Assembly: GCF_963921235.1 (NCBI RefSeq)
Contig: NC_086097.1
Location: 157,916,001-157,980,000 of the forward strand
Length of the DNA: 64,000 nucleotides
Direction: 5' to 3'
Source of the DNA: Mobula hypostoma
Lineage: Eukaryota
Below the pieces are notes generated by a model that was not told the origin of the DNA, did no database searches, and saw nothing but the letters and a program-made list of their open reading frames with translations. The translations under genes were made by a program, and so were the position numbers. This document shows, in pieces, positions 23,715 through 64,000 of the stretch; position 1 is the stretch's first letter; each line of letters opens with the position of its first letter.

Positions 23715-25330
23715 CCTGGGTTGGAGAGCGATACCAGTCTAGGCTTGGATCATACACTGTTCCACATAGTCGACAAAAAGGAAAGCATAGCTAGGGCCCA
23801 TGCGAGTGCCCACGGCTACACCTTTGGTTTGAGGCAAATGTGAGGAGCCGAAGGAGAAATTATTGAGAATGAGGAGCAGTTCTGTCAGACAGAGTAGAGT
23901 GGTTGTGGAGGGGAACTGGTTGGGTTTGTTGCATAGAAAGAAGCAGAGAGCTTTAATGCCCTCCTGTTGGGGGATGGAGGTGTATAGGGACTGCATATCC
24001 ATGGTAATAAAGAGACAATTGGGGCTAGAGAACTTGAAGTCATTGAGAAGATCCAGAGCATGTCACGGATGTAGGTAGGAAGGGACAAAACCAGGGGGGA
24101 TAAAACTGAGTTGAATGGGGCAGGAACAAGCAGAAACAATGGGTCTACCTAGAAAGGAAGGTTTGTGGACCTTTGTTAGGAGGTAGAAATGGAAGGTGTG
24201 GGGTAAGAGAACTACAAGGTTGGTGGCAGTGGATGGGAGATCCCCAGAGTTAATACGGTCAGTGATAGTGTGGGTGACAATTGCTTGGTGCTCCTTACTG
24301 GGGTTCTGTTCAAGGGGTAGGTAATGGGAGGTGTCTGAGAGCTGTCGCCTGATCTCAGCAAGGTAGAAGTTAGTCTGCCTAACTACTCCCTTATCTACAG
24401 GTTTGATGGTGAGGTCAGGATTAGTGAGGAGAGAGTGGAGAACAGTACGTTCAGAAAGGGTGAGGTTAGCATTGGAGAGAGGAGTGGTAAGATCAGGATG
24501 GTTGATATCTCGTAGGCAGTTAGTAATGAAAAGTTCCAGAGCAGGCAGAAGACCAGAGCAGGGTGTCAAGGAAGAGGAGGAGTGTTGAGGATGGGAGAAG
24601 GGGTCATCAGTGCGGGCTGGACAGTCCCTGCCAAAGAAATACGCATGGAGACAGAGGCGGTGGGAAAAGAGCTCAGCGTCACGGCAGGCGCAGAGCTCAC
24701 TGAGGTGCAGGCACAGTGGGACAAACGTGAGGCCATTACTGAGGACAAAATATTCTACCTCAGGGAGGGAAGGTCAAAGGGAATAGTGAAGACCTGACAC
24801 AGATGAAAGTTCAATAAAGCAGACGTGGAAGAGGGTTGGTAATGTCTGAGGAGAGGGGTGGGTTACGGTTTTCGGAGAAGGTGGAGTGGGAGGAAGATGG
24901 AGTCTCTGAGAATCCAAGAGGGACCTAAGACATGCAGGATTGCAGAGTGGTGGTGGAGGGGGTTGGGGGGAGGGAGATTGGGGTTCCAGTGCAGCACATA
25001 AAGTTCTGGCCTGGAGGTGCTGTCAGTCAAGGTCCAGGCTGGAGTTGGAGTTTGAGGTTGTGCAATAGTTACTGTGGTGTTGTTGGAACCTGCATTGATG
25101 ACCCAAGAGGCATAGAGCAATACTACTTGCAGCCTTGGGCTACTTCCAATAAGAAGCAGACCCAGGTCAGTCATATAATCTTCAGCCAATGAAACAGAGA
25201 CATTGAGACATCATAAATTGAACTGATAAGGAAAAGGATAAGAATAGAGAATTTTGGGAGCAGGCAGTAACAATTCTATGGAGAGCAATGTTCGCAGAAG
25301 TGGATGACACCACATCAGAAATGTGAAGGC
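23715..25330 (-). mobile_element. Penelope-like element, RT region (frameshifted)
   Basis: TIKPVDKG.VV; FYLLTKVHKP..GRPIVSACSCP; MDMQSLYTSIP; NNFSFGSSH.PQTKGVAVGTRMGPSYA. Confidence 0.9.
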
Positions 25331-37465: not shown

Positions 37466-39109
37466 TATCAGTTGCTGTGATTGCCCACAAGAAAATGCAA
37501 CTCAGGGTTGTATGTAGTGACATGTATGTACTGCAATAATAACTTTACTTTGAACTGCTTCTTTCTCCCTTGTATTCCTCGCCTTGCATGAAATCAACTC
37601 TGAACCACAATCTCATGGTAGAAGTTTCATGTAATTAAACATTCACTGCATATTTATTCCACGGAACAACAGCGGAAATTGTACTGGAGCCTTTATACAA
37701 AGACCCACCTTACATGCTATTTTCTGCCACTCCACTAACACATTGTATAATATTTTCTCTGCCAGGTGACTCAATCCTAGACGTCAGCATCTATTAAGAG
37801 TTACCAAATCATGCACAAGACTGCTGACTTGTTGCAGTAGATAATTGACCTTACAGATGGACTTAAATATTTCACTTGGCACCCCACCCTACCACATTAA
37901 AATTCATATAGTCCATCGAATTACTTTACATAAAGAGCAGAATCTGTTCAGTCAATTGTGACCTCTTATTTTAATCAAAAAAAAAGTTAATTCATAATTG
38001 ATTGACATGCCAGGATTTTTTGATAAGGTTACAGGAGAATACAGACATGTGATCCTGCAAAAGCAATTGAGTGAAAGATGTAACTGCAGTGGGCATGATT
38101 CAATCCTGACTGGTGCCAAATTCACAGACTGCATTCCTATCAACTAAAATGGACAGAGGCTATAACATTCAGCAACTGCTTGAGCAGAACAGAATGAGAA
38201 CACCTCCCTGATCTTTCTTTCTCTCACTCTGGTTTCACACCAACAATCCTGCATGCAATAATTCCAAGTGAAAGGAAGACACCACCATTCAACCTGTTCC
38301 CTGCATGTTTCCTCTCTGAGAGAATGATGAGATGAAGCCCTGCCTGGAATCATGCTCACCAGTCTCAGCCTGGGACTATATTGTATTATCTTCATGATAA
38401 TAAGGACGATGCAAGTTTTAATTTTTTTTCTACAATTCTCCAAACATAACACAAAGGGTAATTTATAATAATATTTGATTGGACGATTAATTAACATACT
38501 ATTGATAACTTTGTATAGTGTTAAACCTTCCTGACTGGCTCCTATAGTTGAGCATTTACCAGTTTCTACCAGGTGAAGGGCTAACAAAGAGCTATTTATT
38601 GTGATGCTGCACTCACTGCTGACATGATGTGCTGTCCCCAAGTTCACAATCTTTAGCTTTTTGCCAAATGATTTCCTTCCATTTTATAATAAGCATGTTT
38701 ATGAAATTATCTAGTAGCAGCGGGAAGTACTCATTACTCAAGAACAAAGCATCCAATTGAAGATTCGGCTGTGAAAAAAGAGCTGCTGGAGGAACACAAT
38801 AGGCCAGGCAAATCTGTGGAGGGAAATGGACAGTCAGTGTTTCAGGTCTAGACCCTTCATCTGGACTTGTAATAATTCAGGTGGCAATAATTTCACACAG
38901 CCAAAGCACACGTTTAATTTAATCTACCGTTAGTTGCAAAATGACAACTGAAAACAATCATTTCACAAGATGGCTTGAAAAAGTGCAAAGAGCCTCCTCC
39001 TTTGCTCTGGAACAAAAATCACTGCCCTGAAGATACTGGAGAGTTTGGTGGCCAATGACAGCCAGCAACAACACAAATAATACAATTTGCTGATGCCAAT
39101 CCAAAGTAG

Positions 39110-39460
39110 TGGAGATAAGGCGGTGAAAGGCGCTCCTTTCCTCCGCCAGCCTACAGGTCACCTTTGGGCAGGGTGTACAGCTGGTTAGCCCCCCCTCCCC
39201 CATCAGGTTGACGTGATGCCATGGGAGCAGGTGGTGGATGGTCGTATGAGCGCTGGTGCTTATCACAGGTCCTCTTTACTTGACCACTGGCTCCAGGCGT
39301 ACATCCTCTGAAGAGTATCGCTAATAGCTGGGGTCACCCGTCTTGTAAAGACTCTGCCCAGATGAAAGCAATGGCAAATCACTTCTGTAGCAAAATTTGC
39401 CAAGAACAATCATGGTCATAGATAGGCCATCAACGCCCACGTCAGACGACACGGCACATT
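39110..39460 (+). mobile_element. RTE/BovB-tailed SINE-like element
   Basis: The 3' part gcaatggcaaatcacttctgtag..tttgccaagaacaatcatgg resembles the RTE/BovB-type motif; strong 5' hairpin at 39119-39147. Confidence 0.6.
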
Positions 39461-41250
39461 ACCAGAAATCCGAAGTAGTAGACGCGCACTTCCAATAATT
39501 TTCACATCTCCTGTTTTCATATTGTTATTCACACCATTATTATGAGACGTCTAAAGCATTCCTAATCTACTACAGTTTCTATGCTATAAATCATGATGTC
39601 TCTCTCGACAAATAGCAACGTCGTGTACATGTGGTGGAAGCTGAAGTGTTAGTACGAATTCATAATTATCCTTCTGGAATGGTCCTAAAAACGTCGCCGT
39701 TTTATTGCACCACAATACAAACAGTAAAAGAAAGACATGTTTGGCGTTATAACAAATAAAATGTAATATCATGTACCACCTGTCCTGGTCTTATACCCGC
39801 GGGTATTGTTAAAGTAATGGAAATCCCTTGCAGGTGCACTGAACAAATAAACCGGAAGGATATAATCTAAGATTACAACGCACTTCAAAATAAAAGTTAA
39901 ATGTATATAGTACGAGATTTTTGTTATAATATTGACTTTGAGGCTTATTTTAACGTTTGCCATCTAACTGCGACATGTATTTAAACACTGAACTGAGTCG
40001 TTCATTTGCTTCCGTGTCTGTTTCTATTCCTTCACCGTACGTATATTTACCGCACCTTCCTCCCGATCTGCGGTAAGATCCAAGTTTAGCGCGTTAATTT
40101 TGTCTATTCTATCCACAGAAGAAACGTGGTGCGCTGCGTGATTTAAGCTAGGTGTTCGACACCGTCAGATTCTACAGTCCTGTATTTAGTTCTTTGTTGT
40201 ACATTTGTCACGCACAGTTTGGTGACTGGCGTCTACAACATCACGGGAATGTAGTGAAAGTCAGTGATCCGAGAGGAATCGGTACAAGAGAAGCAGCGAT
40301 TTGAAGGAGCTAATAATGAGAAAGTTGCAGCATTCTTAATGACTGTATTTTATAACTTAGGGAAGTTGACTTAATTAAGGGAGAAACGCCAGACAGTAAT
40401 ATTTAATCACACTGAATGCTGTTCTGTACAGTGTCTGTACGCCACCCTTGGGTAGGAACTGAATGCCAACAATCGTCATTCCTAAATCAGGTTTTACACA
40501 CCAAAAAAAAGGTGTACAGGTATCGTTATTTTCTGAATCCCGTGACCTTTAAGCGTCTATACTAGTTGAGAAGTATGCAGAAGATAAATCAAAATATGTG
40601 ATTTTCCCACAAGTCTGAGTTGTTTTCAAACGATTACAACACCCCCAGCCAAAGAACAAGTAATGATTATTACAGGAAGAGAAAGGCGCATCTGCAAAAG
40701 AATCAACAAGTCAATTCTAACGGTCGGAAAGTTTAACTTAAAACTAGTTGACAGAAATACCAAACTCGGATGATACAATCACTCTAATTGCAATCAGGTG
40801 GATTTATGGGTCCAGTGAGAATAAAACTGAAATGGATTGATTTAATTGTATGAAATAGTACCTTTAACTTGCACACTGAATGATAAATCAGCGAGCGACC
40901 CTCTGATAATGCTCAATTAAAGCTTGTATGCCCGCCTCTAACGGGTTTCCCGGCTGATCGTTGATCAATAACACCTCAACGTCTTCACCTCCAAACTAAT
41001 TGACCATTCGGTCTCTATACAGCTCAGAATTCAGAATCAGGGCCAGTGGAGGTCCCGTTTATTGAAATAATCACTGCATTTCAAGGCAATTGATAAGAAG
41101 CTCCTTTGTTAATACGCGTAAAAAAAACTGCAACAGGAAATTTTAAAACAAGCCCCGACATTTCAAGCTAAAGCATCAATCTAAACGAGCCCTTGTTGTT
41201 TTTACTGCTAACCGAGCCTCGAGGAGAGTACGGCGGTTACGTTCACTTAC

Positions 41251-41983
41251 CGGCAGAATCCGCATCGATGCTGCCTTTGGGGTTCTTGATGCAATGCTCC
41301 AAGTAGACGCCGTCTTTCAAGCAGCTATCTCCCTTCTTATTCAAGCCCAACATTTCAGTGGACTGACCCATACTGTCGGCCCTGGAGCACTGACAGGGGG
41401 TTTGCATGATGCCGCAGGGTCGGGCGCTGGTACTGATGGCCAGACAAGTCTCCAGCCACTTGCAGAGCATCTGACAAGCCCCTTTGCTGGGGTTTCTGTT
41501 GCCTACCACTAAATATTCGGCCGTGAACTCCTTGTCTTTGATCCTGCCGCCTCTCCCCTTTGCCCGGCCAAAGACACCCCCTGAGACCTGCTTCATTTGC
41601 AGGTACTGCTTGCTGGACTGAAGGAAGGCATAACGGACCGTGGAGTCGCAGAGCCTCAGCACTTCGTCGAAGCTCTCCATGCCCAAATAGGTGCGGGTGC
41701 TTGTCAGAAAAGAATCGTACTGGTAGGTGCGTATCTGGCGTCTCTCACATATATTACTGGTCTTGGCTACCTTCATGTACAGCGTGTATCTCCTCGGGTC
41801 GGGGTTCTGGATAATCCAGGAGCAGGCAGAGTTGTTGGAAGCAAAGACCATTGAAGAGGAGAAGTAGCCGAATAGTTTCCCCTGGACCAGAGTGGTACAA
41901 GGGGTTTGGCCGGCGTCAAACCCGCTGACAGTCCACAGCGCGGCGGCTAAAATCACAATCACCGCGGAATCAGTGATCCTCAT
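41251..41983 (-). CDS. ADGRB1: Adhesion GPCR B1 (BAI1), first coding exon: signal peptide plus N-terminal extracellular domain (244 codons + 1 nt)
   Basis: Translation MRITDSAVIVILAAALWTVSG...PCTTLVQGKLFGYFS...NPDPRRYTLYMKVAK...TRTYLGMESFDEVLRLCD...EYLVVGNRNPS...CQMLCKWL...PCGIMQTPC matches the BAI1-type N-terminus. Real ATG at 41983 (the ORF track starts at an upstream GTG) followed by a hydrophobic signal peptide. The exon ends at a strong donor CCG|GTAAGT (41250-41245), phase 1. Confidence 0.95.
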
Positions 41984-42045
41984 CCTAGGTCGGTTATCCC
42001 AAGAAACGCCAAAGAAATAGCAGCAACAGCCCAGATCATGGACAT
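41980..42045 (-). other. uORF (MSMIWAVAAISLAFLGITDLG*) whose TGA overlaps the ADGRB1 ATG
   Basis: Direct translation ATG TCC ATG ATC TGG ... CTA GGA TGA; TGA is 41982-41980 and the main ATG is 41983-41981. Confidence 0.7.
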
Positions 42046-42307
42046 AACAGGACCGACTTTTACAGAAAGACACCAGCAGATGATTTCATTGCAATCTTTG
42101 TAGTTTTGTCCTCGGTCTCCCCCTTGTGGTAAATTCCTTGAAATCGTATATATTTTCTTTTAAAAAAAAACCCTAGTCCCAAAAGGAATACCCCTCCCCG
42201 GCGCTGTATGAGGCCACAGTTTATTCGGTGTATTCGCCAACTAATTTACAAATTAAACACAAAATTCTGCAGACGTTGACACTTCAGACAGCCCGTCAGA
42301 AATGAAT
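41984..42307 (-). other. ADGRB1: 5'UTR part of the first coding exon of ADGRB1
   Basis: Minus strand reads a polypyrimidine tract and acceptor TGTC(T)9ATCATTTCAG| at about 42330-42308, so the exon would begin at 42307. A weaker CAG lies near 42269. Confidence 0.6.
42060..42089 (-). other. Short uORF MKSSAGVFL* in the ADGRB1 5'UTR
   Basis: ATG AAA TCA TCT GCT GGT GTC TTT CTG TAA read directly on the minus strand. Confidence 0.55.
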
Positions 42308-42924
42308 CTGAAATGATAAAAAAAAAGACAGGTATCACTTTCTTTTAATGCTCTCGGATTTCACGAATTCTTACAATATCATTTGGAGTCATTCTTTACG
42401 AGCTTTGTTAGCAGACTTTTGACTATTTCTCATAACATTTTTTCGCGTGGGGGAAACGCTACCAGAGCGTTCCATCAGCTTAAACCGATGATTAACCCCT
42501 GTCTAGTAGTGGCCACTTCAAAATATGCATCCTACAATAAACTTGGTCTCGTACAGATTAATCTGCACCATATGCCCTGGCCATGTCTAACTGTACTTGA
42601 AATGCGTCCTCGCATATTTTCAAACATTTTTATAATAACACTGATTAATGTACAGCTATTTTCTCCTGATTATCGGGTAAACATCCAAAAAAACTAAATG
42701 CCGTTTACTGACTTACACACTGCAGTTATTAACTATTAAAAAGGCATTTAGTAAACCTCGTAAAGCGTTCCAATAAACAGAGATTTTCCTGTTATTCAAA
42801 TGTAACTATTTAACTTATCAAAGCCACCATAGTTATTCTAGTTTATGGATAAAACCAACAGTTTAAGCAAAACGTATTTTTAAAGATCAGGTTGCAATTA
42901 TTTCGAAATATTCTGAGATAAATA

Positions 42925-43102
42925 CAATCTTTGTAGTTTTGTCCTCAGTCTCCCCCTTGTGGTAAATTCCCTGAAATCGTATATATTTTCTTTTAAGGAA
43001 AAGCCCCTCGTCCCAAAAGGAATACCCTTCCCCGGTGCTGTGTGATCCGCGGCTGATTCGGTGTCTTCACCAACTAAATTAGAAATAATACACAAAATTC
43101 TG
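42925..43102. repeat. Direct dispersed duplicate of 42092-42269 (ADGRB1 5'UTR segment)
   Basis: Both copies run caatctttgtagttttgtcctc...cacaaaattctg, 178 bp each, roughly 85-90% identical by eye. Confidence 0.95.
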
Positions 43103-45961
43103 TCCTATGCGCTTTATACTATAAAACCCGTAATGTAGAATTCGCAATATGATAGACAAGGTGCATTTTGTATGTACTATACCGTCAGTAGTCACAGACT
43201 CGGCCTTCTGTGGCTTGCGTGCTGACTGAGCACATTGATCTTTTAAATTCAAAATTGGGATTTCGCTTGGATTAATTGTTTTGCCACTGCCGTCTTCTCT
43301 CGTGGATATATGTAAATTGTAAACTCAGATGGTCTTTCAAGATTTTGCCCAATTTAAAAGCACACATTTTTTTAAATGCTTGTGATTGACAAGAGTAGTG
43401 TCAATTAACAGTGCTCGTTCTTACAATTACTTCCACATCATATCTTCCACAGAAATGAAGCTACCTTCTTGTTTCATCGGGACTCATTTTGGATTGCGTG
43501 CACTGACTTTGTTCCTCTAATAACCTGCTGGACTGTGACAGATACAGGAACCTGTGTCCCCTTTCGCTTCGAACCACCCCCCCCCCCCATGTGGCTGTGT
43601 CATTCCCTGATTTAAAAGGAGACGCGCATCAGGGAAACATTAAACCCGTGAAAAGCAATGTAATCCCTTAACCTTCTAATAGGGGGATAAACATCGTGAC
43701 TGGTACCTGCGTGAGAGAGAGTGGTCTACGATTTGCTCGGTTATACCTATTTTAACCTGTGCATTGACGGCACATTGTTCTTATCGCTGCCGGGTTCAGA
43801 CCAAGACGCGCTTCCCCCCTCTGGGAATTGTTCGCTACGAGTCTATCAGGCGTTCAGCATTCGAACGACTGATTGCATTTCATCTCTCGTAATCCTGAGA
43901 CGTGCTTGTGCAATACCTATGCAGATCTCCGTTCATTTGCGCGCGGTGGAGCAGCAGTAGTTTAAGGGGATGTATAGGGCGGGAGCTTTGGTGACTGAGG
44001 TTACTGGACACAGGACCACTGGTGTCCATAATTTGGAGCTCCTAGGAGATTGACGGTTGTTGGAGATGAACAACGCAAAACACAAGGGGGGTGGAGTGTG
44101 AAATATGCAATGTATACAGCGGGGTGTGGAAACAGATCGCATACTGACTCATAATGCATCAACATATTGTTAAAAGTTACTGTGTTATAACAAAGCCATC
44201 TGTACGAACTGAAAGAGAGGAGGCAGTGTGAGGCGGCAGTCTTAGCATTGGAGTGTTTGATGGGCGCATTATTAAGACTGTAGAGTGGTTTGCTGAGAAC
44301 GCGTTCTTCCGTTTGCCCGTATTTTAAGCAGAACATTGCGTTTATTGAAGATAGCAACCGGCATTTTATTTTGTTTTTGAAGATTGAAGCTAATAGCATG
44401 CAGGTGTTAGTGGAGAATGGACTATTTGTGGCCGTCAAGGCTGTGACTGAATACAGATCGTTGTCACCCTGCTCCGATTTGGTGAGAGCTGTTTGCTGAG
44501 GAGGTGCGTTGCATGCAAGCAGCCAGTTTCGCTTCGGCGAAACCTAATGATCAGGAGCTTGCTAGATTTAATTTATTATATTTGCTGCGCGGTTTCGCTC
44601 CTAAACGACGGCATGTCGTCGGTTAGAAGCGAAGTCCATTATGAAGCAGTGGTCCGACGGGGCACATCGCCCCCACAATCTCCCCCGATATCTTCTAGGT
44701 ACCAAGGTGCTACCGCTCGCTCCCATTTAAGTGACATCCAATCCTTGGCGAAGGAGTTAACAGAACCGAAGTGACTCAAACTCAGTGAAAGATTCTTAGC
44801 GTCACGTTCTGCCTTGGTGGCTGCTAATTACTGTGTAATTATCCCCAATTATTTTATTCCAATGCAGACCAACTTAGTTGGTCCTATCTGTTACTAAGAA
44901 ACGACTGCGTTGTTACATGTAGTTGGGGATCCCTCTGGCATGCTGCATCACAACTAATGTCTAACAGGTTTACACCCTGAACCACAGTTTTCTCCCAGTA
45001 GTAAGAATCACAAAGTCTGCTTTTTGATCCAATGACACGATAATGCGTCAGATTAATTGGCTGTCAGTGGGTTAGGGATTATTGAAATGGTGTAATATAA
45101 ATGTGTTGTTTAATATAAACGGGACGCATTTCACTCACTGTGTCGCTGGAGCTGGTAGAAGTGAAGCAGATTAGATCTTGCTATCAGCTATATGCGATTA
45201 ACCCCTGATCTGTTGAATTCATTTTGGAGCAGTATTTTAACAGGCTGACGACCAAATCGTGCAAAGTGACACTACAATCAAATAGGCCCAGATAGGGAAT
45301 TAGAGGGGGGCATGGATGTTCATTTTAATAACTGGGATTAAAGCTATACAATGATCAGCATCAGAGTGCATAAAAGAATCACGCCGTCCCGAGTTTTGCA
45401 GTTTACTAATTGGATAGATTTCAGAAAACGGTTCGGAGCGCTGAGTTGTTTGATAGTCCACACTTCTAACGATTACTGTTTGAATCTAATAGTCCCCAGT
45501 GAACGTTGCACTGACCATGAACCTCTCTGCGTCGCCCATTGCTAGAGGGATAAGCTAATTCAGCAAAGACTTGCAGAGTCGAGAGATTCTTTAGGTGACA
45601 TTCCCAAGACATCGTTTGAGCGCTCGGACTCGAGAAGTACACGGACCATGATAGGAGCGTCGTTGATATGTGTGTGCGCTCTCCAAAAACATCAGTCCGT
45701 TATCCTGTAACGATCTGGAACGAGGGCGGTCTAATATCCACTTTCAAACGAGCACGCTGTATGGTTTTGCTGCACCGATTCTACCAGACATTGTCACCTG
45801 CACATTCCCCCTTTAAAGGTGTCTGCTTAAATGGTGTATTTGGTGACAGAGCTTCTCCCTCTCCCCTCAGAAAACCCCAGCACGCTGTATAAAGTGGATG
45901 TGCACAGACCCATTTTTAGAATAATATACATAACCTGTAGGTATTTCCGTGTCATCCTTAC

Positions 45962-46330
45962 CTCAAAGTTTCTGAGCAAATATTTACACCTTTTCTCCTG
46001 GTGCATTCACCAGCAAGCTCCGCGTAAACAGTAGGATGATGACCACCATGGTTTGCGGCTGGGATCCCCACACGCACACAGCCACACACACAGGCTGGAG
46101 TAAAAGGAAGGTTTTGTTTCAGGAAAAAAAAAGAAACGGGGAGTTGGGGGGGGGGGTATCTGGAGGCAGAAAGGAGGGGGTGGTGGGAGATCGTTCCTTT
46201 GATTAATCCGAAAGATGCAACAGTCCAAGTGCCTCGGAGTTTAGATCCAAGATCCGCGCTGGCTCCCCCGACTATCGATGTATCCTTGTGGGAAAGTGGT
46301 GTTGGAAGGGACGGCTGGGGTAGGAACTAG
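45962..46330 (-). other. ADGRB1: Putative non-coding upstream exon of ADGRB1 (5' end uncertain)
   Basis: Consensus donor GAG|GTAAGG at 45962/45961 inside the CpG-rich region. The coding exon starts at an acceptor, so an upstream exon is required. Confidence 0.45.
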
Positions 46331-46429
46331 AAGTGGCGGTGAGGTTGCAAAAGATCTGACAAAGCGTCCTGGTCTCCTTCTGATTTCCCACCTACTGAAA
46401 GCAGAGCGTTGTAGCTAAGAGCGCAATAG

Positions 46430-46500
46430 TTACGTCAGGCACCCACAGCTTTCCCAATCGCGCGTTGGAGGAGGAAAACTCTACCAAGGCAATATATAAA
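46430..46500 (+). promoter_or_regulatory. CRE-like / CCAAT / TATA core promoter cluster
   Basis: TTACGTCA 46430-46437, CCAAT 46454-46458 and TATATAAA 46493-46500, in canonical order on the plus strand. Confidence 0.5.
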
Positions 46501-47529
46501 AAAGCAGCGGAATCGACTGGGTCGACTAGGAAGCGGAGCCGACCTAAGCCGCGGAAAACCGAGGAAGCCCACCCCCACCCCCGGTCATTTCTCCGCTGTG
46601 TTATCCACACACCGCCACTCCGGATTTCTTTTAAACAGTCTGTTTTCCTTTCGTCATCTCTACATATCTTTGCTATTTTGCGAAATGGAAATGCGAACAA
46701 AATTCTGAGACCACTCATATTCCATTTCCAGCGCAGTTTTACAGGACAATTATCGCTGTTCACCCAGCAGGTTTATCATTAAACAATATAACCGACTGCA
46801 ATGCAATTTGTGCAGTCTATTTGCTTCAGACACATGTCTGATTCGCTTTCCATTACCGGACTAGAATCTGGATTTTATAGCTCTCCATCTGGTTGTAGTG
46901 TTTAATAAATTTACAGTCTGAGGTAGATACGCAAAGGGAGACTCATGCTACGGTCATTTAAAACCACGTTCCAATGCTGATCCAGTGTCTTTTCAAACAC
47001 CTTTATTAATTAAAAAAAATCACCGCAGCCGAATTTCCAAAGTGGGGGCCTCCAGAATTGCTTTATGTTATCTAATGTCTCAAAGCACCCTGCAGTTTGT
47101 GGGCACATCATCCATTTTCAGGGTAACAGTAATTGGTTGTGTTCAGCCAGTCCAGGAAGGTCTTCATCCCTAAACTACCCCACCCATTTTTCCTCTTCCA
47201 GGTCTCCCCTGCTCCTTCCAACCGGGGAACTATTCCAACGGCTATCGCTATTGAAACGCTCATTTAGGGGGAGCGTGGAATTTTCACAGTGGAACTGGCC
47301 ACTCGGATTACTGGCGCTGAAACTCCCGCAGCAAAGCAATCCTGAGCGCGCAAGTTCCCCATCCACTCTTATAAGGGAAGTTATAGCCGCACCAGCTGTC
47401 TCGAGTGGGACAAACCAGGTATGATCTGTTATTTTATTAGTCTAAGTATCGTTACGCAAGTGCCTGAGTAAAAGGCAACCTGAATGGCACAAACTGAATG
47501 AGTCCGGACTCATCCCGATCCGATTTATC

Positions 47530-47775
47530 TTAAACACAAGAGAAGCTGCAGGAGCTGGAATTCCAGAACAACACAAACAGCGTGCTGGAGGAACTCAGCA
47601 GCGAGGGAAGCATCTATGAAACAGTCAGCATGTCTGGCAGAGACCACTCTCCACGAATGGAAAGGAAGGGGAAGAAGCCAGAATAAAAAGGTGGGGGGGG
47701 GGAGATGGAGGAGGTGTTTGATAGGTGAAGCCAAGTGGGTGGGAAAGGTAAAAGGCTGGAGAAGAAGGAATCTGA
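47530..47775 (-). repeat. Penelope-type tail repeat (decayed hammerhead)
   Basis: gctggaggaactcagcag...agcatctatg plus purine-rich spacer, the reverse complement of the 37200-37460 tail. Confidence 0.7.
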
Positions 47776-47989
47776 TACCCTACAATTCAGACATATGAAT
47801 GAATTTTCCTCTTCTCTCTCCAGCGCAATATGTGGCAACCAAAACTGCGCACAGTGCTCATATCCTGTCTTACTCGTGTTTTGTAAAGTTGCAACATAAT
47901 GCTCCAACTTTTGTATTTGATGACCCAAACAATAAAAGCAAGCATGCCATGTTCCTTCTTCACTATCTTCTTGTGTTGATACTTCTAGG

Positions 47990-49430
47990 GAGCTGTGGAC
48001 TTGAATCCCAAGGTTCCTTTGTCAAACAACAAAGTATCTGTATTTTATTAGCATATTGTGGCTGTTCTCCCCCTTTTGACTTCTCATAATTCTCCACCTC
48101 ACACTTATCGGGATTAAATTCCATTTGCCAAGCTTCCTTACTATCCACAACACCCCTGACTTTTGTGTCATTGGCAAACTTACAAATGATACTACCTACA
48201 TTAACATTCAATTGATTAATATGTATCCGGCAAACCACCAGTCACAGATTTCCAATCTTTAAAGCATCCTTCCAGGATTACTCTCTGCCTGTATCACCAT
48301 GGATAATTTTGAGTACTACAGTATAATGAGCAAAACAAAAGATCTGTGAATTGACAAAGTTTGTCAATCAGTAGTATTAACTTGCCTCTTCCTTTCCAGA
48401 GATGCCAGCTGTTTAAGTACCTCCAGGAATTATAATGTTTATTTTGAATTCCCAGCAACCAGTTTATATTGTGTTTGTGCATTTTAAAGAGTGGTAGTGG
48501 TAGCCGGTTTCCACAGAGTACATCCCTACAATAATATTGATATCATGACCTGCTTTAGTTATATTCAGGAACGAATAGAGTCATAGTACTATAGAGTAAT
48601 AGAGCATGGAAACTGGTCTTTCAGCACAAATGGCATCCTCCTCACTAGTTTCAATTGTCCATGTTTGGCTCATAACCCTCCAAGACCCTTCACTCTAAGT
48701 ACCTCTACAAATGTCACTTCAATATTATCATTGTTCCCACCTCAACGACTTTCTCTGGCACCTCATTGCTCATTGCTCATATTCATTGCTCTCTAGTTCT
48801 GGACTCCCAACCCTGGGAAAAGACAATGACTTTCCACCTTATTCAAACCTCTTGTGATTTTACAAACTTGTGAGGTTATCCCTCACTCTCCTGCCTCCAA
48901 GGATTTAAGATCCGGTGTGGCCAACCTCTTCCTATAACTTGGACCCTTTGGCCCAGTTAGCACCCTTATATATCTCTTCTGCACCCACTTCACCTTGACA
49001 ATGTCTTTCCTATAACAGGACAACCAAAACTGTACACAATATCCTACATGCAGCCTCACCAGTGACTTATAACTGCAACATAATGTCTCTACTCTTCTGG
49101 AAATTTGCCAGTGGCTAACTGTTCCTTTGTTTTTAAATAGAGTCACCCAGTTGACCCCAGCTTGACCCTACCCAATGACTTCAAATTTTGCCCTGCTCCG
49201 GTTCAGGACATTAATCTGTAGACCTGTTCTATCTTTTTCCATATCTATTTTAAAGTTAATAGAATCATGGTCACTAGACCCAAAGTGCTTCCCAAATGCC
49301 ACCTCAGTTATTAGGTCTGCCTCATTCCCTAAGAAGAAATCCAGTGTTGCTCCATCCTGAGTAGATGCCTCTAAATATTGCGCAAGGAAACTGTCTTGCA
49401 GGCACAATACAAATTCTGTCCCATCAAGGC
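47990..49430 (-). mobile_element. CR1 LINE fragments (RT and endonuclease)
   Basis: ICKFANDTKVRG..WQMEFNPDKCEV; YKSLVRLHVGYCVQFW; endonuclease ATLDFFLGNEA...HFGSSDHDSINF. Confidence 0.85.
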
Positions 49431-55649: not shown

Positions 55650-57178
55650 TGACAGAATATTCCCCAGGCTGCTCCACAAGGCGAGGGACGAGATTGCTGA
55701 GCCTCTGACTAGGATCTTTATGTCCTCGTTGTCCACGGGAATGGTACCGGAGGACTGGAGGGAGGCGAATGTTGTTCCCTTGTTCAAAAAAGGTAGCAGG
55801 GATGGTTCGGGTAATTATAGACCAGTGAGCCTTACGTCTGTGGTGGGAAAGCTGTAGGAAAAGATTCTTAGAGATAGGATCTATGGGCATTTAGAGAATC
55901 ATGGTCTGATCAGGGACAGTCAGCATGGCTTTGTGAAGGGCAGATCATGTCTAACAAGCCTGATAGAGTTCTTTGAGGAGGTGACCAGGCATATAGATGA
56001 GGGTAGTGCAGTGGATGTGATCTATATGGATTTTAGTAAGGCATTTGACAAAGTTCCACACGGTAGGCTTATTCAGAAAGTCAGAAGGCATGGGATCCAG
56101 GGAAGTTTGGCCAGGTGGATTCAGAATTGGCTTGCCTGCAGAAGGCAGAGGTTCATGGTGGAGGGAGTACATTCATATTGGAGGGTTGTGACTAGTGGTG
56201 TCTCACAAGGATCTGTTCTGGGACCTCTACTTTCTGTGATTTTTATTAATGACCTGGATGTAGGGGTAGAAGGGTGGGTTGGCAAGTTTGCAGATGATAC
56301 AAAGTTGGTGACGTTGTAGATAGTGCAGAGAATTGTCAAAGATTGCAGAAAGATATTGATAGGATGCAGAAGTGGGCTGAGAAGTGGCAGATGGAGTTCA
56401 ACCCGTATGAGGGTGAGGTGGTACACTTTGGAAGGACAAACTCCAAGGCAGAGTACAAAGTAAATGGCAGGATACTTGGTAGTGTGGAGGAGCAGAGGGA
56501 TCTGGGGTACATGTCCACAGATCCCTGAAAGTTGCCTCACAGGTAGATAGGGTAGTTAAGAAAGCTTATGGGTTGTTAGCTTTCATAAGTCCAGGGATAG
56601 AGTTTAAGAGTCGCGATGTAATGATGCAGCTCTATAATACTATGGTTAGGTCACAATTGGAGTACTGTGTCCAGTTCTGGTCGCCTCACTATAAGAAGGA
56701 TGTGGAAGCATTGGAAAGGGTACAGAGGAGATTTACCAGAATGCTGCTTGGTTTAGAGAGTATGCATTATGATCAGAGATTAAGGAAGCTAGCGCTTTAC
56801 TCTTTGGTGAGAAGGAGGATGAGAGGAGACATGATAGAGGTGTACAAGATATTAAGAGGAATAGATAGAGTGGATAGCCAGCACCTCTTCCCCAAGACAC
56901 CACTGCTCAATACAAGAGGATATGGCTTTAAGGTAAGGGCTGGGAAGTTCAAGGGGGATATTAGAGGAAGGTTTTTTACTCAGAGAGTGGTTGGTGCATG
57001 GAATGCACTGCCTGAGTCAGTGGTGGAGGCAGATACACTAGTGAAGTTTAAGAGACTACTAGACAGGTATATGGAGGAATTTAAGTTGGGGGGTTATATG
57101 GGAGGCAGGGCTTGAGGGTTGGCACAACATTGTGGGCTGAAGGGCCTGTAATGTGTTGTAATATTCTATGTTCTATAG
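55650..57178 (+). mobile_element. CR1 LINE, 5'-truncated ORF2 RT and C-terminus with few lesions
   Basis: [16 protein letters not shown]...[11 protein letters not shown]...GSVLGPLL...KFADDTK...LEYCVQFWSPHYKKD...FTQRVVGAWNALP; ends in a TTCTAT microsatellite tail. Confidence 0.95.
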
Positions 57179-59212: not shown

Positions 59213-59836
59213 AGAAAACATAGACATAGAAAACCTACTGCACAATACAGGCCCTTCAGCCCACAAAGTTGTGCCGAACATGTCCCTACCTTAGAAATTA
59301 CTAGGCTTACCCATAGCCCTCTATATTTCTAAGCTCCATGTACCTATCCAAAAGTCTCTTAAGACCCTATCGTATCCGCCTCCACCACCATTGCCAGCAG
59401 CCCATTCCACGCACTCACCACTTAGTAAAAAACTTACCTCTAACATCTCCTCTGTACCTACTCCCCAGCACCTTAAGCCTGTGTCCTCTTGTGGCAACAA
59501 TTTCAGCCCTGGGAAAAAGCCTCTGACTATCCACATGATCAATGCTTCTCAGCATATTATACACCTCTATCAGGTCACCTCTCATTCTCCGTCGCTCCAA
59601 GGAGAAAAGGCCGAATTCACTCAACCCGTTTTCAGAAGGCATGCTCCCCAATCCAGGCAACATCCTTGTAAATCTCCTCTGCACCCTTTCTATGGCTTCC
59701 ACATCCTCCCTGTAGTAAGGCGACCAGAACTGAGCACAGTACTCCAAGTGGGGTCTGACCAGGGTTTTATATAGCTGCAACATTACCTCTCGACTCCTAA
59801 ATTCAATTCCATGATTAATGAAGGCCAATACACCGT
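59213..59836 (-). mobile_element. CR1 LINE 3' fragment (young subfamily)
   Basis: MLQLYKTLVRPHLEYCAQFWSPYYREDVEAIERVQRRFTRMLPGL; its 3' end is near-identical to 30141-30324. Confidence 0.93.
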
Positions 59837-60599
59837 ATTTTACATGTGAAATTACCTTCCAATATCCAACTTTAAAAAATATAAAGGTTTTATTGTATGT
59901 TAAATTAGCTGTGGAACCCCAGCTAATCTTGTAAAGTACTCAAGCACAGTATTATGGTAATTTCAAGTCCTAGGGGTTCATGAAGATTTCTGTGCCCAAT
60001 TTTGGGAGTTCATTATAGCAGTAGTAGGGAACTAACTCTGACATTTTTAATGTTTAGGAAATAAACAATAATATACTATTTTTTGAAAGCAGAGTGGTGA
60101 ATTGTAAGTAACTGCACCAAACTTTTATTCATGCTCTCCAGTATGAATGAATTTAGTTAACTCCATAATATCAAATAGGTATACTAATTGCCATTTGTTA
60201 ACTGAAAAATTTTCAGAGGTCTAATAATAGACCTAACCTACATCAGCAGAGCATATTTTCTGCTTTTGAAATAGATATAGGTTAATGTTGCTGCGTGCTA
60301 CTTAATTAGAAAGGATTCTTCATATAATATTAATAAAAAATTAATACTTCCTTGCTGCCCTGCGTTTCTTTCACCAAATAAGCAATTCCAAACTTTATTG
60401 AAAAGTTAAAGTTTTTTAAATTTAGCTTTTCTTCCTCCCCTTATCTCGATTAGATTAGATAAATTCATTAATCACATGCCAATTAAAACACCCAGTGACA
60501 GGCATCGCTTGCATTAATAACCAAAATAACCTGAAGATAGGCTGGGGGCAGTCCATATCTATTGCCATATATTCCGGCAACAACACAGCCTATCCATAA

Positions 60600-61990: not shown

Positions 61991-62015
61991 ATTTTATTTG
62001 CAGTAATTTTAAAGC

Positions 62016-64000
62016 ATGGAACGCGCGCTGAGATCCGACAAGTTAGATCTTGACCTACAAACACCTGAAGCTGGAAACGCTTTGGAAATCTGGCTGGCCT
62101 GCTTCAAATCATACCTGGAGGCGATTGAAGTGACCTACTCCAAGGCAAAGCGCAGAGTTCTACTGTCCAGAATCAGTCCACGGGTCTACTCGATGATCAG
62201 AGACCGGCCGAGCTACGACGGCACGATAAGCGCACTCAAAGGACAATACCCACGGCCGGTAAACACCATCTACGTGTGGCATTGCTTAGCGACTTGGCAC
62301 CAGCGGCCTGGGGAATCAAGTGCTGAGTTTGTCCGGGCACTACAGACGCTCATGTGGGCCTGTGATTGCCAGGGGCTGATGGCAGGACAGCATGCAGAGC
62401 TCCTAGTGAGAGACGCCTTCGTCACGGGGACCAGGTCAGTGTCTGTGTGTGCCAGCGGCTGTTGGAAAAAGTTGATCTTACTTTAAGTTCGGCGATCGAG
62501 CTGGCCGACACACTGGAGGCTGCTCTGCACAATTCTGAGGCTCTCCAGGCAGGCGATCCCCCGATGGCCTCATCAGCACCACAGACCCCGCAACCCGCCA
62601 GCGAATCGACCTCGGCTGCTGCCAGTCGTGAGTCTGCGAAGTGCTACTTCTGCAGACTCGAGAAGCACCCCTGGAAACACTGCCTGGCCTGAGAAGCTAC
62701 CTGCTCCAGCTGCGGAAAGAAGGGCCACTTTGCCAAGGCCTGAAAGTCCAAACCGCAAGTGGGATCGAGCAGCGCCGCGTGCGAGATATGGGGGTCGCCA
62801 TCTTGCCTGCCGCCATCTTCCCTGCACGCCACCACCACGTGTGAGACATGGGGGCGGCCATCTTGGTCAGCGCCACCTCTCACTGCCTACGATCAACGTG
62901 TGCTCATGGGGCACCCCACCACGCCGGACCAAGACAGCGACTCAACCCTGGCCTCCGTGACCCTCGACCAAAGCGCTCCCCACCAGCTCGCAAGGTCAAT
63001 GATGGACATGCTGGTGGAGGGGCGCAGGACAAGCTGCCTGTTTGACACAGGCAGCACAGAGAGTTTTATCCACCCGGACACGGTGCAGCATTGCGGATTC
63101 GCGATATGGCTGGTAAGTCAGAGGGTCGCCATGGCTTCCAGGTCACGTACAACAGACATCCGGGGGGGTTGTGTAGCGACACTAGTGGTGCAGGGCACAG
63201 AATATCGAGACTTTACGTTACTGGTCATGCCTCAACTGTGTGCCCCTGTGCTATTGGGGCTCGACTTCCAGAGCCACCTGAAAAGCGTGACAATGAAGTA
63301 TGATGGGCCCATCCCACCAATTACTGTCGTAAATCCCCAGTTTTGTGGGAATATGTCACATACCCCGCTATTGACCACACACACAGACCGATCCACACAT
63401 CCCACCCAACACCATGCCAATTGCCACACTACCGACACCACTTGCGGCCTCTCCACCCTCAGGATCCCTCCCCCACCGCTGTTCGCCAACCTGACCCCCG
63501 ACTGTAAACCTGTGGCAACTAAAAGCAGGAGGTACAGCGCGGGGGACAGAGCCTTCATTAAGTCGGAGGTGCAACGGCTGCTCAGGGAGGGGATCACTGA
63601 GGCAAGCACAAGTCCTTGGAGGGCGCAGGTGGTCGTTGTTCAGAACGGGGAGAAAAATAGGATGGTCGTGGACTATAGCCAGGCCATCAATAGGTTCACA
63701 CAGCTCAACGCGTACCCTCTACCCCGCATCGCGGATATGGTCAATCAGATAGCACAATACAAGGTGTACTCGACCATAGACCTAAAATCCACTTACCATC
63801 AGCTCCCCATCCGCCGGGAGGACCGCCCTTACACTGCCTTCGAGGCGGACGGCAGGCTTTATCACTTCCTGCACGTCCCCTTTGGTGTCACGAATGGTGT
63901 ATCTGTCTTCCAGAGGGCAATGGACCGGATGGTGGACCAGTGCCAACTGAAGGCCATGTTCCCATATCTGGATAACATCACCATCTGCGGTCACGACTGG
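62016..64000 (+). mobile_element. Gypsy gag-pol, disrupted (frameshift near 62440, stops at 62690 and 62741); protease and RT frame open to the window end
   Basis: Gag with two zinc knuckles (CYFC..H..C and CSSCGKKGHFAKA*). Protease LFDTGS at about 63038-63055. RT SPWRAQVVVV...RMVVDY...AYPLPRI...IDLKSTYHQ...YTAF...PFGVTNG...YLDN. The frame is open 62744-64000 and is missing from the ORF track because it has no stop. Confidence 0.93.

Follow-up and report, generated by a model that had tools for sequence, protein, structure and literature searches.

A 21-codon upstream open reading frame ending on the ADGRB1 start codon of Mobula hypostoma, with place and length conserved from cartilaginous fish to bird and mouse

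The window analysed here is a stretch of 64,000 nucleotides from Mobula hypostoma (assembly GCF_963921235.1, contig NC_086097.1, positions 157,916,001 to 157,980,000), whose minus strand carries the beginning of a gene together with its leader, laid out as follows, with the bird sequence referred to in the last line being described below.

41252..41983, minus strand: first coding segment of ADGRB1, with signal peptide and AGRB_N domain, ending at a GT donor
41984..42307, minus strand: exon-2 portion of the 5' leader, 324 nt, its acceptor at 42307 taken from the splice joint and an acceptor scan
45962..46300, minus strand: 3' part of non-coding exon 1, with donor at 45962 and upstream ATGs (uATGs) at 46049 and 46006; the exon continues past 46300
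41980..42045, minus strand: the conserved overlapping upstream open reading frame (uORF), 21 codons and a TGA, its uATG at -62 in a context of G at -3 and T at +4
42039, minus strand: second in-frame ATG of the uORF, fish-specific, in a weak context (T at -3)
42060..42089, minus strand: short uORF of 9 codons in another frame, stopping 14 nt 5' of the conserved uATG and not matched by any uORF at the equivalent bird position

The main ORF matches the Pfam family AGRB_N (PF19188, E 3.6e-66), and its best match among 120 homologues is from the catshark Scyliorhinus torazame (83%). Those homologue matches that are named are ADGRB1/BAI1 or generic ADGRB N-terminal entries, and proteins of the ADGRB2/3 type are ~30-38% identical to an ADGRB1 query. 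Signal peptide, AGRB_N domain and closest similarity together indicate that the gene is ADGRB1 (BAI1). A simple motif scan of the minus strand across window 1-41250 found no thrombospondin-repeat exon, which suggests that the second ADGRB1 intron is longer than 41 kb. Elsewhere in the window the ORF fragments at 55858-57115, 59415-59939, 23739-24773 and 62013-62960 are presumably LINE reverse-transcriptase or retrotransposon gag remnants, which they resemble by motif.

The structure of the leader comes from contigs of four of the 19 listed sequencing runs (X1, X2, X4 and X6), which were compared with 41880-46300. None of the listed runs is recorded as RNA and their RNA origin is presumed, although the clean skipping of the intron fits a spliced transcript. 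Run X1, which is near-identical to the window, has an exact joint 45962>42307 with GT..AG ends, a single contig of run X2, from a relative, passes from exon 1 over the joint and the uORF into the coding region, and the loose ends of run X4 are compatible with the same joint; no contig of run X6 matched 41880-46300. As the joint lies at 45962>42307 and the X2 contig is continuous through the uORF, the uORF lies in spliced exon 2 and thus in the mature 5' leader, which answers the concern, raised when the sequence was first read, that this segment might be spliced out of the mRNA. The same joint rules out an intronic pyrimidine tract misread as a hydrophobic ORF. No joint was seen in the contigs, which lose rare forms, at the candidate acceptors 42240, 42136, 42056 and 41984. 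The uORF is free of indels in X2 and X4, where all gaps fall outside it, and going by the exon-2 differences that were viewed (7 of 11 and 2 of 4) its start and stop are likely to be intact in both fishes.

Other parts of the leader and of intron 1 have a history of their own. A change in X4 at 46006 abolishes that exon-1 uATG. Approximately 190 nt of the exon-2 leader (42081-42269) is duplicated at 82% identity within intron 1, at 42914-43102 and 833 nt upstream; the duplicate does not reach as far as the uORF, has no equivalent of the 42089 ATG and lies in the sequence passed over by the splice joint. Several intron-1 blocks within 43598-45787 are covered by the X2 and X4 contigs of related fishes; these blocks may be conserved non-coding elements, or the runs may simply contain unspliced RNA or DNA.

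Read from 42045 to 41980 on the minus strand, the uORF translates as MSMIWAVAAISLAFLGITDLG*. It ends in GGA-TGA, its TGA (41982-41980) forming bases +2 to +4 of the ADGRB1 ORF, whose ATG lies at 41983 in a context of A at -3 and A at +4. The uORF is out of frame with ADGRB1 and stops within the main coding sequence in fish, bird and mouse alike. Translation and coordinates confirm what the sequence-only reading had proposed, a uORF with two in-frame ATGs (42045 and 42039) and a TGA over the main ATG; that reading had overlooked the additional uATG at 42089, which opens the 9-codon uORF, as well as the two exon-1 uATGs. An alternative signal peptide produced by readthrough was considered and rejected, the uORF frame reaching a further stop at 41961.

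In a single genome such a layout is ordinary and within chance. When the 324-nt exon-2 leader was dinucleotide-shuffled 5,000 times, given the ATGA, a uORF ending there arose in 18% of shuffles, with at least 21 codons in 7% and exactly 21 in 0.4%. As the layout is unremarkable by this measure, the case for the uORF depends on its conservation.

A metagenome scan returned 335 pattern matches that reduce to two loci, L001, which has a leader, and L002, which is teleost-type and has none; a scan of genome contigs gave two weak and unrelated bacterial matches and a scan of viral contigs gave none. L001 is a bird-type ADGRB1 with an N-terminus near-identical to that of named bird proteins. At L001:1439-1504 it carries a uORF of 21 codons, MSRIWRLLDIYFEFQRTRDLG*, at an offset of -62, with the same ATGA and a gapless alignment to the fish. 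Shuffles of the bird leader place a uORF of 20-22 codons there in 0.9% of 5,000. In a second sauropsid-type sequence, P0183, the uORF frame can be read off directly, with one residue of 21 changed relative to L001. Between fish and bird two blocks stand out:

42031..42051, minus strand: 5' conserved block, -6 to +15 about the uATG, 20 of 21 nt identical between fish and bird; similarity starts here
41974..41991, minus strand: 3' conserved block, fish and bird identical at 18 of 18 nt, comprising the last uORF codons, a TAG at -4..-2 in the third frame, the main ATG and the TGA

In a blastn comparison of L001 with window 38001-48000 the sole significant alignment starts at 42051, 6 nt before the uATG. 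Within the uORF, fish and bird share 14/15 nucleotides in codons 1-5, 18/39 in codons 6-18 and 12/12 in the final stretch that runs from codon 19 through the stop, a pattern that bears out the earlier claim of conserved termini and a variable middle. Synonymous sites are unchanged at both ends of the uORF, and third positions in the coding domain are 55% identical; if this 55% is taken to approximate the neutral rate, P is ~4e-4 for the uATG block, ATG excluded (17/18 identical), and ~9e-3 for the 8 nt 5' of the main ATG, both blocks having been picked after the alignment had been viewed. The middle would stay stop-free by chance with a probability of 68%, and its openness alone is weak evidence. 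An N-terminal extension, or the remnant of an old coding sequence, is ruled out by two stops in the bird main frame across the uORF stretch and by the lack of an upstream in-frame ATG in the fish.

Further features of the two leaders can be set beside this comparison. In the string TAG-G-ATG-A (window 41987-41980; L001:1497-1504) both non-coding frames stop within 4 nt of the main ATG, as they also do in mouse to judge from the coordinates. A predicted bird acceptor with a long pyrimidine tract, L001:1328, aligns near window 42136 and the fish splices at 42307; with the bird acceptor a prediction, the start of exon 2 has apparently shifted between fish and bird whilst the uORF kept its place. 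Ahead of the conserved uORF both leaders carry further short ones, at L001:1337-1384 in the bird and at 42089-42060, 46049 and 46006 in the fish, which are not homologous. The start of the bird uORF, M-S-R-I, resembles the main start, M-R-I, through a common AGGATC (L001:1439-1453 and 1501-1512), a likeness that is not found in mammals and that may reflect chance or an ancient duplication of the start.

For mammals the evidence comes from Ribo-seq tables, which list the uORF as translated in both mouse and human. Mouse transcript ENSMUST00000042035.16 has its main ORF at 900:5649 and an ATG-started overlapping uORF at 835:904 (PMC13396407), coordinates that give 22 codons and a stop, a start at -65 and an overlap of exactly 4 nt. 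Mouse rows for uORFs in other frames end at 899, which implies a stop at -4..-2 (PMC13396407). For human transcript ENST00000643448.1 an ATG-started overlapping uORF (ouORF) of 69 nt is listed at 830:899 (PMC10908861, Supplementary Data 5), in line with the human uORF of similar length that the sequence-only reading had proposed; the human 4-nt overlap is inferred from equal length and class, the main start standing outside that table. The human catalogue admits ORFs with at least two RibORF calls >0.6, and this one scores 2 with RiboTish and RiboTricer and 0 with RiboCode and PRICE, a score of 2 being taken as a full match from the methods of the catalogue (PMC10908861). The mouse call is permissive, with a cut-off of 0.3 and at least 11 reads, and the ATG row is one among at least 18 Adgrb1 rows, is not marked representative and carries no adjusted P; at least 11 near-cognate (CTG/TTG) rows cover the same bases in another frame (PMC13396407). 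After chemical LTP in mouse slices the tabulated log2 fold change is 0.39 for the uORF, without an adjusted P, and 0.18 for the main ORF (adjusted P 0.80), and no significant activity-dependent change is listed there (PMC13396407). ADGRB1 does not appear in the supplements of PMC10032668 covered here, the Ribo-seq ORF list included, and in those of PMC6528255 BAI1 is present only as an mRNA. Human ADGRB2 has a 16-aa uORF that is classed as young and de novo (PMC10032668) and hence is not a counterpart of the ADGRB1 uORF.

The upstream main-frame extensions that gene callers add to proteins were also used to constrain the overlapping frame, extensions which permit but cannot prove a uATG. Eight amniote proteins had such extensions, two of them too short, and an out-of-frame ATG is possible at -21/-22 codons in 6/6 of the testable extensions (5 clusters), at -21 in the squamate-type P0004 and at -22 in the mammal-types, and nowhere else in the nearest 40-65 codons. 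Sixteen teleost-type proteins have extensions, nine of which reach at least 22 residues; by the same protein-level inference an ATG at -21/-22 is permitted in 0/9 of these, for which the start Met was picked by eye and the extension may be intronic. Two teleost-type extensions allow an ATG at -23/-24, where residue 2 excludes ATGA. Among distinct N-termini, 42 of 44 from non-teleosts have Arg at residue 2, as do 3 of 53 of teleost type, many of these sequences being close relatives. These protein sequences suggest that the uORF was lost, and apparently dispensable, in teleosts.

The place, length and stop-start overlap of the uORF are conserved between cartilaginous fish, bird and mouse, with a counterpart of the same length as that of mouse in human. 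Cartilaginous fish and mammals diverged roughly 450 million years ago. The proposal that the uORF is conserved across jawed vertebrates holds for position, frame, length and ATGA overlap in fish, bird and mouse and appears too wide where teleosts are concerned, none of whose nine testable extensions allows the ATG.

What has been conserved would appear to be the position and not the peptide. The fish peptide has a GRAVY of 1.69, a value reached in 3.1% of 10,000 composition shuffles, and that of the bird has -0.39; positions 4-5 are I-W in fish and bird and are restricted to H/L/P/R and G in mammals. The hydrophobicity pointed out in the sequence-only reading is thus correct for the fish and does not extend to the bird, or to mammals with their Pro/Arg/Gly-type peptide; by sequence it is a lineage-specific trait of the fish, the mammalian peptide being of Pro/Arg type. 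Codons 6-18 give a pN/pS of 0.48/0.71 (~0.67) between fish and bird and the coding domain 0.16/0.68 (~0.24), both uncorrected and near saturation. It has been found as a rule that the start codons of uORFs are conserved and their peptides neutral (PMC7889888), a general pattern that the kept ends and free middle of the ADGRB1 uORF match. A functional peptide, be it a nascent stalling peptide or a small membrane microprotein of the conserved-peptide (CPuORF) kind, is in our view highly improbable. The fish shares nine of 21 residues with both sauropsid sequences, themselves 1/21 apart, and pN is below pS in codons 6-18, as such a peptide would predict; seven of the nine residues, however, lie within the end blocks, the ratio of 0.67 far exceeds that of the coding domain, hydropathy changes sign between fish and bird, mammals cannot encode I-W at positions 4-5, run X4, from a related fish, carries an F14L change, and the peptide has no Pfam match. 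Purifying selection on the peptide across the whole range does not appear from these sequences, given the ratio of ~0.67 against 0.24, the incompatible mammalian residues and the changed hydropathy, whilst within sauropsids alone the peptide may be constrained.

We think it probable that this is a putative cis-acting overlapping uORF that limits ADGRB1, with the receptor being made through leaky scanning. Ribosomes that start at the uATG would terminate atop the main ATG and mostly be lost, and ADGRB1 would be made by those leaking past the uATG, whose moderate context (G at -3, T at +4) may catch part of the scanning flux. Selection would hold the two initiation contexts and the frame, not the peptide. 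On termination of the uORF the P site covers bases -2 to +1, the A site holds the TGA and the main AUG is 2 nt ahead; a 40S subunit at that stop would have no time to reload initiator tRNA. This reading is favoured because an overlap of even 1 nt is likely to preclude ordinary reinitiation (PMC5972666) and because out-of-frame overlapping uORFs are typically negative and bypassed through leaky scanning (PMC10275272). Of the two possible frameshifts, one would create a fusion of the uORF with the signal peptide, which could partly explain retention of the frame without any coupling. Against this reading, it is not evident why simple repression should call for a constant length and for so precise an ATGA overlap. 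The ATGA may owe its retention in part to the signal peptide, by way of Arg at residue 2.

The main rival, coupled termination-reinitiation, would give a better account of why length, AUGA and TAG are all so strictly kept. It supposes that factors are retained, that the ribosome stops on AUGA and slips 2 nt to the main AUG, and that the uORF feeds or buffers ADGRB1, and we regard it as rather unlikely. The exact AUGA and a length of 62-65 nt are kept in fish, bird and mouse, the sole length change observed is one whole codon, the last codons and the second stop, TAG at -4..-2, are invariant between fish and bird with a stop implied there in mouse too, and AUGA is a recognised stop-restart geometry for which cellular cases without TURBS are known (PMC5972666). 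TURBS motif 1 usually lies 40-90 nt upstream of the stop (PMC5972666), and here the core UGGGA is found at fish positions -198 and -18 and at bird position -133, none of these being shared or within that interval; the AUGA overlap of TURBS systems is therefore present in fish, bird and mouse, but the motif in its usual place is absent from fish and bird. Folding of the two available DNA sequences gave nothing significant or common to both (z -1.14 and +0.35), Rfam gave no match, known efficiencies are low (3-20% in viruses; PMC10275272), and a Met-Arg start readily gives rise to ATGA by itself. More specifically, ADGRB1 might be translated at least partly by a TURBS-independent cellular stop-start relay as old as the jawed vertebrates, in which a uORF of fixed length would bring ribosomes to the AUG that it overlaps, and translation in either non-coding frame would come to an end in the TAG-G-ATG-A cassette, no more than 4 nt from the start. 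This we consider unlikely; if true, it would be a rare endogenous and deeply conserved substrate of coupled termination-reinitiation in neurons.

The two blocks might also be nucleotide elements with some other job, such as a CTAG|G acceptor, a protein-binding site or local pairing, the uORF being incidental. Synonymous sites and non-coding bases are conserved as well, the 3' block matches the YAG|G acceptor consensus at 41984, and the blocks pair weakly with each other (-8.1 and -10.3 kcal/mol). Both blocks, however, centre on an ATG and the 5' one begins at the Kozak window, the mammalian flanks have changed and yet ATG, frame and overlap are kept, the pyrimidines before 41984 are weak (11/20 against 17/20 at the acceptor that is used), and fish and bird pair in different registers without covariation, all of which makes this a very unlikely account. 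A GA-rich termination-pausing motif has been described elsewhere (PMC13341110).

A literature search, with subscription journals and some conserved-uORF catalogues outside its range, found nothing that joins 'ADGRB1' and 'uORF'. The human and mouse ADGRB1 uORFs are known only as rows in supplementary catalogues (PMC10908861, PMC13396407), and a 2026 review of BAI1 treats promoter, epigenetic, microRNA and proteolytic control, the word 'uORF' not being found in the part of it covered here (PMC12860997).

If the uORF does limit ADGRB1 then constructs that carry only the coding sequence would be without uORF control, and a meaning could be given to leader variants in which the uATG is lost or its frame shifted. 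ADGRB1/BAI1 has a role in the shaping of synapses and dendrites, and a uORF held in place for ~450 million years points to an overlooked layer in the control of its dosage. With so exact a geometry, the locus would also offer a clean natural experiment on what short cellular uORFs that end in AUGA do, repress or pass ribosomes on, as has been asked for SLAMF1.

Amongst known systems, genes of the ATF4 type combine a short uORF1 with an overlapping uORF2, giving delayed reinitiation and induction under stress, upon phosphorylation of eIF2-alpha. The fish and bird leaders likewise each have short uORFs ahead of the overlapping one; unlike in ATF4, these are non-homologous in place, frame and spacer (14 and 54 nt), no conserved short uORF1 at a suitable distance was found between fish and bird, and the overlap is only 4 nt. 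The AUGA geometry is that of the TURBS stop-restart sites of caliciviruses and influenza B (PMC5972666, PMC10275272). Unlike in those viruses, the upstream ORF of ADGRB1 has 21-22 codons and does not encode a long protein, no motif lies 40-90 nt upstream, and the main AUG can be reached directly by leaky scanning.

A closer likeness is to the 29-codon uORF of the long leader of human SLAMF1, also the last short uORF in a leader with several, where the stop overlaps the start codon of a membrane protein and the mechanism is debated between repression and hand-on (PMC5972666). There the overlap is UGAUG and in ADGRB1 it is AUGA, and ADGRB1 differs further in having no UGGGA-like motif at a shared place and in its deep conservation. 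With the class of overlapping uORFs variously termed oORFs, uoORFs or ouORFs it has in common an AUG in the spliced leader, out of frame and with its stop inside the main coding sequence, and a start conserved beyond the peptide (PMC7889888). Only 1.82% of human uORF peptides of at least 10 aa are traceable in fishes, although by a different measure (PMC7889888). The ADGRB1 uORF is a real and unusually old member of this class, unlike typical oORFs in that its overlap is minimal, at 4 nt, and that position, length and overlap have been kept from cartilaginous fish to mammals.
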